NCBI GenBank assembly: GCA_964016885.1
Contig: OZ024743.1
Span: forward strand, 165,416,001-165,480,000
Source of the DNA: Eledone cirrhosa
Lineage: Eukaryota
Length of the DNA stretch: 64,000 nt
Direction: 5' to 3'
Shown: positions 40,278-48,928 of the stretch, piece by piece
How the letters are laid out: the number at the start of each line of letters is the position of its first letter
Position numbering within the stretch: position 1 is the first letter of the stretch
Translations under genes and position numbers: made by a program
Notes under the pieces: generated by a model
Databases searched by the model: none
Seen by the model: the letters and a program-made list of their open reading frames with translations, nothing else
Told to the model about the DNA's origin: nothing

Positions 40278-41284
40278 TATACATTATGTTAACACCATAA
40301 CATGCTAACCATCCAAACAGAGACATGCATACACACACACATAACACCTTCTATACTCGAAAACAAAAATCAGAGCTCAATAAACCTTAAGATACGTTAA
40401 TACTCTAACACCTTAACATGCTAACATGCTAACATGCTAACATGCTAGTCCAGCCTCCTGTTATTTTATTTTATTTATAATTAACTCCGTATTCTCACCA
40501 CCAACTACACAAACGAAGATGGGTGAACTGCACTCCGTTGAGTACTCTTCACAATATTACACCAGGATTGACCATACGGAATGACCAGTTCTATCCAGTG
40601 GTGAACCAACAAACCTAAAGAAATAATGCTCCCCCCATAATGTTGAGCACTTCCAGATGTAATATTGAACAGCGGCACTGACTTCAGTGTACAGCTATCG
40701 TCAGCATGGAATTAACTGCTCTACTTACCATTCGGATTTTGGTTGCTCTGTGCTTTATCTGCCGCCACCTGATGCTACTTCCTTGTCGGGAAGAATCCGA
40801 TTCCGACAAAACTCTCCGTATTATACTAAAACATGTATTGTATTGACTGAATTCTCTACTCTATACCTCAGGACTTTTTTGACTCACACTGAATTCGGAG
40901 ACCCGAACTTTACACTAGGTACAACCTGTTACCATTCCATCTCCTCCATCCTCTATATCTATATGTTCAACCTGTATTATCTTACTACAACTTGATCTAT
41001 ATTGATTCTTATTTACCTTTATTAATTTTTTCATTAATGTATATATTTTTAACTTTTTTATTATTTTATTAATGTATTTTTATCAATGTATTCTATCTCT
41101 ATATTTGTATTTTATCTTTGTATCCTGCTTTTATTATTTTTTTGTAACTTTCCTTACTCAGGCCATTATGCACCTTTCATAGCCCCCTACCCACCTAAGA
41201 ACCACACTACTTATAACCCGGACTAACTGGGACTTTAAAATAATTTTGGTCTATTTGCACTTTTCATTGGGTTGCTACCTTCGA

Positions 41285-41445
41285 CATGTGTGGTGGCTTT
41301 TCCCGGCTGCGCGCTGGGCACTCGGAAAGTTCAGCCTTCCTTGAGTGCTTGGAAAAATAAATTTCTCCTCTCTCAGTAAACGAAATTACTCGGAGCGGCT
41401 TGCTTTGCCCAGGTCCCACCGCGCCGCCTGTTTTGGCCGCCATAT
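41285..41445 (+). ncRNA. Conserved GC-rich stem-loop motif (unknown function)
   Basis: tgtggtggc/gccgccata, cgcg/cgcg, ctgggca/tgcccag, gagtg/tactc nested helices around cttggaaaaataaattt...gtaaacgaaa. Confidence 0.6.
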
Positions 41446-42270
41446 TATACCTGTACCTATAAACTCCAGGTTTAGGCATAACTATTAGCTGTATCATGCC
41501 TCTACTGGCACGTAAATAAATCCCTCATGTGTGATTTAATAGTATTCGTTTGGTATAGACGATGGCCTGTCGAAATTGTGGAGTTCCCGCTAACGCTCCC
41601 GAGGCCTGAGGTAGCTACGTTCCTAGAGTACTCGAAAAATTTAAATTCCATTTCTTTCGCTGGACGATACCACTCGAGACTGGCTGACTCATGGTGGGGT
41701 GCGGTGGGGAGGGGGGGGGGCTGGCTGGGACTCCCAATCGAAATCTTTACTCTATATTCCATCCTAATATCTTATCGAGATAAATTTTTTCATATAAGAC
41801 TCTCTCCGTAAGTTCATTAAATAAATAAATCTCGCTACCTTAACCTTCTCTAATAACTTATTTTTTCAATTTATCATTTTTCAATTTAATATTTTTAATT
41901 TAATTTAATTTCATCCTATAACTCGCAACATAAGTTTAACGTTCCAACCTTCGGTTCACACATTATACCATACAAACACCCATTATAGATTCTTTGGAGT
42001 AGCATTTTTTCGCGGCATTTTCTAGCATGAATGTAGTGTGACCCTTACACTGACTTCTTTCTCCCTTTCTTTCTTCCCCTTTTTCTTAGACGGAGAGGTG
42101 GTAGTGCATTATAAGCCTTCACCCCCTCACCAGATATTCATTAGTAGATTCAGTTGCCACCACTTTGAGGGCGACTGGCCGAGCAGCTAGTTGGTCAGTC
42201 GTCCTCTTTGTCTCTGTCTCTGATATTTCGGACTCATGGTTTTTTTTACATATTCCTTTGTTATATTCCA

Positions 42271-42328
42271 ATACCTGATGATATCACCGGATTCATATGG
42301 AACCCGGTCATTGAAATGATCATAGTAT
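42271..42328 (+). ncRNA. Type I hammerhead ribozyme
   Basis: atac-CTGATGA-..accgg..ccggt..-GAAA-tgatca-TA-gtat; predicted cleavage after 42324. Confidence 0.85.
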
Positions 42329-42869
42329 AATCAACTTGTGATGTGACCAATCCTGGTGATTATCTCTCTGACCATATATGGAATTACCCCTTGATAAGTT
42401 CGGCTATTTAAATACCAGAATTAATTTTTAATTCAGTACAGAATTAGCCGTCGAAACGGCTTGAGCTCAGCCGTCGGGGTCTTACTTGTTCCTATTACCC
42501 ACTCTACTACCCTAAGTATTGAGTACTTTGGTGCGTTATGGTCCACCTGGTTCCTTACCACATTTTCTTCGTTATATAAATATATATATATATATATATA
42601 TATAAATAAAATAAAATAAAAGGAGGCTGGACTTGTGTAAATCCTTGAAAGGTTTAGTATATATATATATATATATATATATATATATATATATATATAT
42701 ATATATATATATATATATATATATATATATATATATATATATACATATATATATATATATATATATATATATATATATATATATATATATATATATATGT
42801 GTATGTGTGTGTGTGTGTTATATATTAGTATTGCGAGGTTTTTGATATGAAATCGTGTGTCGAAACAAA

Positions 42870-44090
42870 TATTGTTATACTTGGGGAGGGTCATATTTGT
42901 GTAATAATATTGCCAGATTTAATAACAGAACACACTCACTGTTTGGTTCGTTTTCGCTTCTGTGTCTTTTAAATCTGTTAATTTAATTTATTCGGTCCTC
43001 ATTGTTATCGTTGACTGACCAACGGTCAAAAATACAGATACAGTATAGACACAAACACATATATATAGTCTAACAAAGTTCTTTCGTTGCACATCTGCAA
43101 CATCGTCAGTGGTGCTATTATGTTTCCTCCCGTTGTATTGTATGCCTACGCTATCTTTATTTAGTCTGTTTATTTATTTATTTATTTGTTTATTTATTTA
43201 TTTTTTGTCTTCTCTGCGCATGCGTTTGTGTGTGTGTATAGTGTTTTGTTTGATGTGTGTTCGTGTTTGGGTGACTGTGTATTGGTTATTGCATTCTATC
43301 TTAGTTTACTAGTGTGTGTTTATATATTTTTGTTGTTATTGTGCTTGTGTATGTATTTATTTATTTATTTATAGTTCTCTTAGGTCAGTGTTGTTGTTTG
43401 GGTGTTGTTGTTATTCCATTCATTTTTTCTGTTTAGCCTTGGCCTTCTAAGTTCTATTTCGCTGGCCTCTCTGATTTGCCTATCTGCTGGGTCATTTCTA
43501 TGTTTAGATATTATTCTAATTTATATGTTGTCTATGTTACCGTTGTGTTGTTGTCTAGCATGTTCGTATAGTGTGTTCTGTTATTAATTCTGGCAATATT
43601 ATTACACAAATATGACCCTCCCTAAGTATAATAATGTATATATATATATATATATATATATATATATGTATGTGTGTGTATATATATATATATATATATA
43701 TATATATATATATATATATATATATATATATATATATATATATATATATATATATATATATATATATATACATATGTATATGTGTATATATATATATATA
43801 TATATATATGTGTGTGTGTATATGCATTTATATATATATATTGTTATACTTGGCAAGGGTCATATTGTTGTAATATTGCCAGAATTAATAACAGAACGCA
43901 CTCACTGTTTGGTTGGTTTTCGCTTCTGTATCTTTTATATCTCCATAGTTAATTTATTTGGCAATCAATAGCCCTTTGAGAATACCCACTGTACAAATAA
44001 GAAATGTGTTATATGTAAAATGAACCCCCAGATAAATTGTAAAACTAGAACTGTATTCTATAGCATAAGATGTACAGAGGGTACTTGCTG
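42870..44090. mobile_element. Further PLE 3'-end fragments (family of 28583-31712) split by (TA)n; hammerhead-like motif 43071-43112 (-)
   Basis: 42870-43570 matches 28583-29300; 43849-44088 matches 39058-39310. Confidence 0.85.
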
Positions 44091-47037: not shown

Positions 47038-47177
47038 ATAAACATTTAAAGAACTTCTATGAGGTTTTGGGTTGCGGGGTTTAATTAAAGAGAGTCTTTT
47101 ATGAAGAAACGTTAATTGTATTATGTAGATCTGTAATTTATCCTAGTGGGATGTAGAGTACGGGATATAGTCGTGTA

Positions 47178-47901
47178 ATATTTATTTTTGTTCTCAGGAG
47201 GAGACATTCTAGTGTCGTGTGCTAATGGGTACAAGTGAGCAAAAGTCCCAATGTGAGGAGTAGAAATACATGGATACATAGAAGTGGAATACGTGAAAGA
47301 GCACATTGGTAAAGCAAAGGTATAAATATATAAACATATCAATATATAGGTATAAATATGTAAATAAACCAACAAGAGTGGTGTTGGAGTAAGATGGAGA
47401 AATCAAGACATAGGAGAATTACAATATAGTTCAGGTTGCAGTATTTATGTTCCCGGGGGGAGACAATCCTGTGTCGTGTGCTAAGGGTACACGCGAGTAA
47501 AAGTCCGAAAAAGGGAAGTAAGAAGTACATGGATGTATAGAGGTTGAGTACGTGGAAAAGCATTAATACAGCAAATAAAGATGTAAAGATATAAATAAAC
47601 AAACAAAAGTCGTTGTCTAGTAAATGGAGAGTTCAAGACAGAGGAGAAATACAATATAGTTCAGGTTGCAGTATTTATGTTCCCAGGGGGATATATTCCA
47701 GTGTCGTGTGCTAAGGGTACACGCGAGTAAAAGTCCGAATAAGGGAAGTAAAAAGTACATGGATGTATAGAAGTAGTATACGTGGAAAAGCATTAATACA
47801 ACAAATAAAGATGTAAAGATATAAATAAACAAACAAGAGTCGTTGTCTATTAAATGGAGAGTTCAAGACACAGGAGAAATACAATATAGTTCAAGTTGCA
47901 G
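47178..47901. repeat. Three tandem ~230-bp units
   Basis: gtgtcgtgtgctaa..gtaca recurs at ~47212, ~47471, ~47701. Confidence 0.9.
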
Positions 47902-48393
47902 TCAGATAATGCATATAGATGTGGAAACAGTGTGTGTTCGAGTCTGGGAATTCAGTGTGAGTTATACATGCCCACAAGTATAGGGTAGCGAATTTAGTTA
48001 ATACAGTGCAGTACAATACATGTTATGGTCTAATCCGTAGAGTTTCGTCGAAGTTCGAATATTCTGAGAGGGAAGTAGCAATGGGCCAGGCGAAAACACC
48101 GAGTAGCCAAAGTTCGAATGGTGGTTAGATATATTAAGTCCCATGCCGCTGTTCATTATTACATTTTGAAGTGCTCAACATTTCAGGAGCATTATTTATT
48201 CAGGTTTGAGGTTCACCACTGTATAGAGCTGGTGTATTCCGTATGGCCAATCGTAATGCAATAATATAGAGAGTACTCAACGTAAAGCAGTTCAACCGTC
48301 TTTGTTTTTGTAGTTGGTGGTGCTATTACGGAGTTAAATATTATAATGAAATGACAGGAGGCTGGATTTGTGTAAATCCTTGAAAGGTTTATT

Positions 48394-48451
48394 ATACTAT
48401 GATCATTTCAATGACCGGGTTCCGTATGAATCCGGTGATATCATCAGGTAT
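48394..48451 (-). ncRNA. Type I hammerhead ribozyme
   Basis: Identical to 45048-45105; 3346 bp apart on the same strand. Confidence 0.85.
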
Positions 48452-48928
48452 TCGAAATATAATACGTGAATGTAATAGATAAAATCCATGGGGCTGAAAA
48501 TCGAGGACCCGAGGGTGACCGCTATTCTGCTCCTTCAACCTCAGCCGGTCGCCCTTTCAAGGATTTACACAAATCCAGCCTCCAGTCATTTCATTATAAT
48601 ATTTAACTCCGTAATAGCACCACCAACTACAAAAACAAAGACGGTGGAACTGCTTTACGTTGAGTACTCTCTATATTATTGCATTACGATTGACCATACG
48701 GAATAGATCAGCTCTATACAGTGGTGAACCTCAAACCTGAATATATATATATATATATATATATATATATATATATATATATATATATATATATATATAT
48801 ATATATATATATATATATATATATATATAATTTCAATAATGTAGTGATAATATATCGTTACGTTAGAGATGAGCAGCGTACGTGTAGGTTTGCTCAACGA
48901 GTATAAATTATATTCCGGAGAAAATGTA

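Follow-up and report, generated by a model that had tools for sequence, protein, structure and literature searches.

Copies A and B

The 64,000-nucleotide (nt) stretch of Eledone cirrhosa DNA analyzed here (assembly GCA_964016885.1, contig OZ024743.1, positions 165,416,001 to 165,480,000 of the forward strand), which we refer to as the window, contains two hammerhead-bearing copies, A and B, that represent two subfamilies of one dispersed element of 1.9-3.3 kb devoid of open reading frames (ORFs). A preliminary description of the locus had reported identical same-strand hammerheads in B, enclosed in direct terminal repeats, an inverted extension, no transposon-like ORF between the hammerheads, and a copy A on the opposite strand with almost the same hammerhead; all of this was reproduced (Table 1). 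The B hammerheads are identical over 59 nt and lie 3,346 nt apart, the direct repeats (44993-45209 and 48339-48555) differ at 3 of 217 nt, the inverted extension is 96.9% identical to 48193-48387, and the longest ATG ORF of the B unit encodes 74 aa. No other part of A and B is as conserved as the hammerhead, which differs at one of 59 nt. The two copies had also been called collinear but diverged. They align well in only three places, namely the opening ~480 nt (about 70-85%), a GC-rich island and the closing ~110 nt; intermediate subfamilies bridge the remaining sequence.

Copy A lacks both normal ends and the first 29 nt of its unit, and about 7 nt beyond its predicted cut it is truncated by a second hammerhead family (42335-42572, + strand; also at 11487-11698 and 32138-32275). 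This second family, fused to the 3' end of A, has a UUGAUAA core (a U3-A8 variant) and a 5-bp stem III.

Table 1. Features of copies A and B and of a neighbouring Hydra-clade element, in window coordinates (RT, reverse transcriptase; PLE, Penelope-like element).
Feature	Position	Strand	Remarks
Copy A, near-full A-subfamily unit (+30 of the unit to ~7 nt beyond the predicted cut)	40449..42331	+	91-94% to the L055 unit
A leader bulged helix (ACTC-CGTA...TT-GAGT)	40484..40543	+	One inner mismatch in copy A
A pre-hammerhead hairpin	42167..42206	+	10-bp stem
A type I hammerhead motif	42270..42328	+	Palindromic stem III; predicted cut after 42324 (AUA)
Inverted A short-end tail (+2 to +62)	42601..42661	-	(TA)n runs on both sides
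(TA)n joined to short end of B main arm	44955-44992		
Copy B main arm	44993..48555	-	158 nt of upstream unit, full 3,346-nt unit (48397 to 45052) and 59 nt to the short end
B downstream hammerhead motif	45048..45106	-	Predicted cut after 45052
B pre-hammerhead hairpin	45166..45210	-	Family-wide hot spot of arm 5' ends
B 478-nt internal repeat, x2.9	45663..47036	-	GC-rich island and TTCATCC island; copy number variable among B units
B 230-nt internal repeat, x2.4	47353..47902	-	Kept in other B units
B leader bulged helix	48275..48334	-	Starts ~5 nt past the short 3' end; candidate RT-binding signal
B upstream hammerhead motif	48394..48452	-	Predicted cut after 48398
B second (inverted) arm, +11 to long end (~+200)	48553..48747	+	Joined to (TA)n 48741-48829
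Candidate helper type, outside the element: Hydra-clade PLE (E)	17798..24356	-	6,425-nt hammerhead-to-hammerhead unit; 823-codon open frame 21442-23913; same bulged helix in leader

Rfam returned no match within the window at the gathering threshold, and the hammerhead was therefore called from its core motif and stems read directly. It reads as type I: a 4-bp stem I, a CUGAUGA core, a stem II with a U.U base pair, GAAA, a 2-bp stem III and a predicted cut after AUA. The GAUC loop of stem III lies inside an 8-nt palindrome (duplex -7.2 kcal/mol). The axolotl HHR_Amex2 hammerhead has the same layout, in which stem III is 2 bp long and capped by a tetraloop and stem II has a U.U pair at its base; it is reported to cleave better as a dimer (PMC7229834), and by analogy the A/B hammerhead may do so as well.

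A dispersed family without open reading frames

The 3.0 Gb genome was sampled at 60 best-match loci, at 73 position-ordered loci (covering 93 of the first 100 listed matches to a hammerhead 30-mer) and at 40 of 218 internal-motif sites; ~3% of the hammerhead matches were covered (loci are designated L with a number). The A/B hammerhead family does not arise by chance, since the 30-mer has 3,512 exact matches in the genome and its reversed control has none, and queries with A and with B each gave about 2,200-2,450 first-look candidates. A motif 310 nt in from the 5' end, one that most B copies do not match, has only 218 occurrences, indicating that most copies are 5'-truncated.

Forty-three hammerhead-to-hammerhead units, all arranged head to tail, measure 1,867-3,346 nt, and their longest ATG ORF encodes 131 aa; three loci have three hammerheads, and two of these resemble later duplications. 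In 37 of 44 near-full-length bodies the leader is followed by the next hammerhead after 1,075-2,455 nt without an ORF, while the remaining seven are interrupted by other DNA, with PLE matches in three, all outside the element end. The RT plus C-terminal GIY-YIG ORF of autonomous Hydra PLEs was found in none of the sampled units or bodies. Profiles for Hydra and Neptune, built from local fragments and run on 31 unit stretches, detected no Penelope RT remnant (best E 0.38, compared with 1e-71 for a broken Hydra control). The earlier proposal to look for an RT ORF between the hammerheads of other genomic copies is thereby answered for this sample, none of the 43 units carrying one, and the alternative that the window copies are an untranslated region (UTR) whose ORF was deleted only here is rejected, as other units are equally ORF-less.

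A tree of 40 unit ends, with a midpoint root only, takes the form of a ladder leading through A (mostly 1.87-2.1 kb), intermediates (~2.0 kb), an older B-like group (1.98-2.69 kb) and B (2.2-3.3 kb). Members of the youngest B branch (2.8 kb) are 99.7-100% identical across different chromosomes, and unit ends of the most distant subfamilies share 74-78% identity. The family is real, abundant and recently mobile. Its units gained size through internal duplication and cargo. Removal of the internal expansions had been said to reduce B to ~1.9 kb, the size of A; the 478- and 230-nt repeats are real and an ancestor near 1.9-2.0 kb is plausible, but the 18 other B units measure 2,230-2,923 nt and retain the 230-nt repeats, so that the figure fits other subfamilies (1,867-2,096 nt) and not B. 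One of the conserved islands listed for both copies is missing from most B units: the exact island TCACACATTA is absent from all 18 other B units, and AA[CG]GTTCCAA occurs in two of the 18. A dispersed repeat of ~190 nt is found at one and the same position in A units from different chromosomes, complete in L055 and L184 and partial in L182 and L189, and therefore appears to be cargo carried along with the element.

Insertion ends and the leader helix

In the 73 position-ordered loci, the 3' ends of the copies, measured from the predicted cut, fall into two classes: a long end at ~+200 (62 cases) and a short end at ~+58 (55 cases), with three others. A (TA)n run adjoins 113 of 117 ends. The 43 back-to-back arm pairs comprise 38 long+short, one short+short, one long+long and three unclassed pairs, and 38 of the 40 classed pairs against an expectation of one half gives p of about 1e-9 by our own arithmetic; B in the window is one such long+short pair. 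In vitro, the Poseidon element of the anole is reported to cut and extend both strands of AT-rich DNA, two internal RNA start sites bounding the genomic tail (PMC11167929), and a preference for (TA)n is described for the Hydra clade (PMC8557442). Two fixed ends and arms of which one is short and one long correspond to the pair of RT start sites by which the Penelope tail is delimited in vitro (PMC11167929), here with a tail of 140 nt. We infer with high confidence that a Penelope-type protein retrotransposes the family in trans by opening (TA)n DNA, priming from either side and initiating cDNA at the internal sites ~+58 and ~+200. This upholds the earlier suggestion of a non-coding parasite with several subfamilies mobilized in this way.

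The 5' ends of the arms are also non-random: 19 of 65 arms at risk stop between -152 and -170, at the 5' base of the pre-hammerhead hairpin (background 6.7%, p 3e-8, for an interval picked after the data had been seen). This fits joining of the arms through an inverted repeat, or a transcription start. Arm starts at the cleavage site were considered and not used as evidence, as a few arms begin at +11 to +17 but most pass through; a single arm (L143:3802) ends exactly at the predicted cleavage site, joined to Hydra coding sequence.

Between the two 3' ends, starting 5-10 nt past the short one, lies a bulged helix: two helical segments, the first of 4 bp, separated by a 2-nt bulge on the 3' side. 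It is present in 88 of 107 A/B long leaders and in 2% of shuffles, was also predicted by RNAalifold, and recurs in eight other hammerhead families with changed yet paired bases (ACTC/GAGT, GTTC/GAAC and GCTC/GAGC in one helix; CGT/ACG, TGT/ACA, TGC/GCA, CAG/CTG and CAA/TTG in the other). Families that follow or precede Hydra ORFs have it at 3/7 (E), 5/9 (D), 4/5 (TGCGCA) and 13/18 (TATATA), as opposed to 0/16 Neptune leaders. Hydra-linked families in this genome also resemble A/B in their palindromic stem III. The window together with L031-L170 holds ~20 distinct hammerhead families, most of which have a palindromic stem III and a fixed-end pair of their own. Further afield in the window, LINE-type RT elements at 4955-10374 (+) and 53287-62619 (-) contain internal tandem duplications of 2.45 kb and 3.7/4.6 kb.

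The genome contains Hydra, Neptune and Poseidon-like elements. Since the helix beside the short end is common to Hydra-linked families and not to Neptune, the helper is likely a Hydra-type protein, which would recognize the helix between the +58 and +200 sites; we regard this as probable. The Hydra element E of the window, whose hammerhead has a 115-nt stem II, illustrates the candidate type: at least 55 listed matches are 96-100% identical to it, and many relatives at 96-99% have open frames. Pfam did not recognize the E protein, and its clade was assigned by motifs given in PMC8557442 (RWR for RWK, DKT, CxCX5C). Several observations weigh against a Hydra helper. Terminal sequences of A/B show no significant match to candidate autonomous partners (z 1.6-3.4; 1.6 for the leader of E), what they share with Hydra-linked families being the bulged helix; the helix is missing from three further families, two of which lie once each after a Hydra ORF, with counts of 0/18 for CTAG_a (once after a Hydra ORF) and 0/9 for CAATTG; and, because the pattern was defined after A/B and E had been inspected, it supports a Hydra helper without proving it. 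Three other potential leads to the helper were set aside: the join of Hydra to A in L053, taken as an autonomous parent, is unique in the genome; the chimeric PLE joins in L125, L128 and L143 involve three different partners and are not diagnostic; and the TATATC family is itself ORF-less.

Template, helper and relation to known elements

The explanation that accounts best for these data, to which we assign a probability of roughly 0.5 as a whole, is that of an element of 1.9-3.3 kb that encodes no protein and for which a Hydra-clade RT/endonuclease likely acts in trans, its template being an RNA monomer that is probably hammerhead-cut and circularized. The RNA monomer would be cut by its own predicted hammerhead and closed into a circle; the Hydra-clade protein, recognizing the bulged helix between the start sites, would open (TA)n DNA, prime on both sides and begin cDNA at the two internal sites; both cDNAs would pass back through the hammerhead junction of one monomer. 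Most arms stop early, in many cases at the pre-hammerhead hairpin, which is where they are joined.

All hammerhead-containing arms that begin at +58 or +200 run across the cut site, which means that the template was continuous at this point, having been left uncut, religated or bridged by a jump. The upstream and downstream copies of 20 B tandem pairs have 103 derived alleles in common, and 23 subfamily columns are homogenized in at least two loci, with position-specific alleles never found in more than two. Where three copies overlap, 27 alleles are shared by all three, two by upstream and downstream, one by downstream and inverted, and none by upstream and inverted. The arm of more than 2.3 units in L186 consists of sister units with 22 shared alleles that are absent from eight close relatives. 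The shared alleles and L186 favour one monomer that was read more than once, and we see about even odds that a single monomer served both cDNAs, each reading back across its hammerhead junction, with over-unit arms arising via a circle or an end-to-end jump. The circle is slightly preferred because the hammerhead is the best-conserved part of the element.

A number of results speak against this explanation. The number of internal repeats differs between passes in L035, L036 and L039 and between arms in L042, and in L040 13 recurrent alleles occur in one pass only. L199 and L202 hold duplications of a 1.9-2.1 kb unit with 0 and 5 mismatches and diverged terminal repeats; these look like recent unequal exchange or DNA duplication, or assembly error, and were rejected as evidence of rolling circles for this reason, yet such DNA-level dimers could homogenize linear transcripts without any circle. 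There is no excess of A-to-G editing in B (14 private A>G changes against 25 T>C), no autonomous element with the A/B hammerhead was present among the sampled loci, and the minimum free energy (MFE) fold of the lone hammerhead is not catalytic (-15.2 compared with -1.8 kcal/mol for a core-only model). Circular MFEs of the A and B units about equal those of their shuffles (three each), with 50-53% of bases paired, and hammerhead cleavage is reported to be dispensable for insertion of anole Poseidon in vitro (PMC11167929).

Folding predictions for the other parts of the element are similar in tenor. An intermediate unit lies somewhat below its three shuffles and 7 of 104 local windows reach z<=-2; between B and A, the 10-bp pre-hammerhead hairpin differs by a single compensatory change (C-G/U-A), and of the 79 consensus pairs in the first ~490 nt two show a double change. 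As modelled, the RNA is not globally structured and its structure is local only, and the idea of a multi-domain RNA under broad structural constraint is not supported: whole units fold much like shuffles, local stems are few and covariation is modest.

A possible, if rather unlikely, alternative keeps the same element and probably the same Hydra helper, but takes as template an uncleaved linear read-through RNA from tandem source loci, the hammerhead being a passenger or acting elsewhere. It would accommodate the weak global structure, the differing passes of L035, L036, L039 and L040, and L199 and L202 as possible homogenized masters, and the -152 to -170 cluster could then be a transcription start; for anole Poseidon, hammerhead mutants are reported to still insert, and RNA-seq reads ending at the cut site to be lacking (PMC11167929). 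What speaks for the circularized monomer instead is the conservation of the hammerhead (1/59 differences against 74-78% identity of the most distant unit ends), the lack of a paralogue-like split between upstream and downstream copies, and L186, whose units diverge about as much as its arms (92.6% and 89-94%), so that the dimer dates from the insertion.

That a Neptune or Poseidon protein, or proteins of several clades, move the element as a non-autonomous Penelope-type passenger is improbable. Young Neptune copies likewise end in (TA)n, and in L125 a B arm immediately adjoins a Neptune ORF, the 6 kb past the TA run being free of any remainder of Neptune; however, the leader helix is missing from Neptune, Neptune short ends lie right at the hammerhead, comparable one-off joins exist with two different Hydra families (L053, L128), and Neptune and Hydra are joined to each other without A/B at window position 44088. 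The last join lies in a segment (43942-44955) in which a Neptune ORF piece is in frame with a Hydra C-terminus, followed by a Hydra 3' UTR and hammerhead D. At L125:553-4601, seen together with L152, one arm is B joined to the young Neptune ORF and the other is Neptune, the product of a template switch or of a nested insertion with deletion. For Poseidon, a C-rich ORF remnant that we take to be Penelope/Poseidon-like, judging its clade by eye from motifs, lies directly past the (TA)n of a B-like copy (L153:1850-3530).

That A/B is the long UTR or pseudo-long terminal repeat (pLTR) belonging to an autonomous Penelope element, or that it arose recently from an extant one by deletion of the ORF, is very improbable: E has ~3.6 kb between ORF and hammerhead, so long UTRs do exist, and the sample is a small share of the family, but none of the 43 units or 44 near-full-length bodies has an ORF inside the element, the PLE matches of three bodies lie beyond its end, and A/B shows no similarity to the E unit or the D UTR at E<0.08. 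An ancient deletion origin is conceivable and would leave the present mode of action unchanged.

Judged from its sequence, A/B works like an animal non-LTR retrozyme, with circle and cleavage predicted, and is to be filed as a non-autonomous PLE. With the metazoan retrozymes, as described in the sources cited below, it shares the lack of an ORF, one type I hammerhead per unit, head-to-tail arrangement, a GC content under 45% and co-occurring PLEs; unlike them, it is not small (about 150-1,000 nt), is mostly 5'-truncated or in arms of 1.1-1.7 units instead of arrays, is not highly self-paired, grows by internal duplication and carries cargo. The earlier view that it exceeds described animal retrozymes in size stands: its units of 1,867-3,346 nt compare with RNAs of 170-400 nt (PMC7229834) and with consensuses of 51-972 bp in a metazoan survey whose repeat-period search was limited to 1,000 bp (bioRxiv 10.64898/2026.07.22.740005), making it two to three times longer than the animal retrozymes of these accounts. 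Plant retrozymes are given as 600-1,000 bp (PMC7761336), and a discussion passage of the retrozyme literature mentions circular RNAs of 150 to over 1,000 nt. Another ORF-less hammerhead family of the genome (L229:298-1609; also L077:2485 and L211-L230) has a 1,312-nt unit, likewise above the published retrozyme range, with a longest ORF of 75 aa, about 2,300 first-look candidates, the same bulged helix and ends at +54 and +133, and no BLAST similarity to A/B units; A/B therefore represents the long end of a size continuum.

Hydra-clade PLEs, as far as described in PMC8557442, share with A/B the (TA)n targets, a canonical hammerhead, a partial tandem with an inverted arm and a one-sided tail, and many autonomous Hydras (<3 kb) are of similar length, whereas A/B has no RT/GIY-YIG ORF or remnant and a tail of ~140 nt instead of 30-40. 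The anole Poseidon PAc is alike in its two internal RT starts bounding the tail, the extension of both AT-rich strands and the upstream hammerhead, but is autonomous and of a different clade, and its starts lie within the ORF, in an AC-rich stem-loop (PMC11167929). MRC1 and other non-autonomous Chlamys PLEs are similarly ORF-less, with pLTRs, head to tail and moved in trans, but are described as mostly without hammerheads and with 3' ends resembling those of autonomous partners (PMC8557442, 10.1101/2022.06.16.496473). Large retrotransposon derivatives (LARDs) also combine a multi-kb non-coding body and captured DNA moved in trans, yet are of the LTR class and integrase-based, so the likeness is one of analogy (PMC6431247). 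No description of the A/B family or of multi-kb animal retrozymes was found in the literature searched; Repbase, Dfam or supplements may list the family as an unclassified or Penelope repeat.

These findings widen the size range of Penelope parasites that carry a hammerhead, from a few hundred bases up to that of autonomous elements, and suggest that short end signals suffice, small size and viroid-like folding being unneeded. We tentatively propose that A/B may be a giant retrozyme: an animal genome would make non-coding circular RNAs of 2-3 kb by ribozyme cleavage, without a rod-like fold, that would need only a hammerhead and a small bulged helix for a Hydra Penelope RT to copy them round from both sides of a break, and that could carry foreign DNA; the helix would be a portable start signal of the Hydra RT, and the class may have been missed earlier owing to the 1-kb repeat limit. 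As A/B and the Hydra-linked families have almost no sequence in common and yet one common helix at the RT start, they point to a defined, mutable cis-element and a candidate intact helper. Two questions thereby become testable, namely how a Penelope RT chooses its template and what role the hammerhead and the circle play in mobility, and the tolerance of a variable interior of 1-3 kb is relevant to RNA-templated insertion tools.

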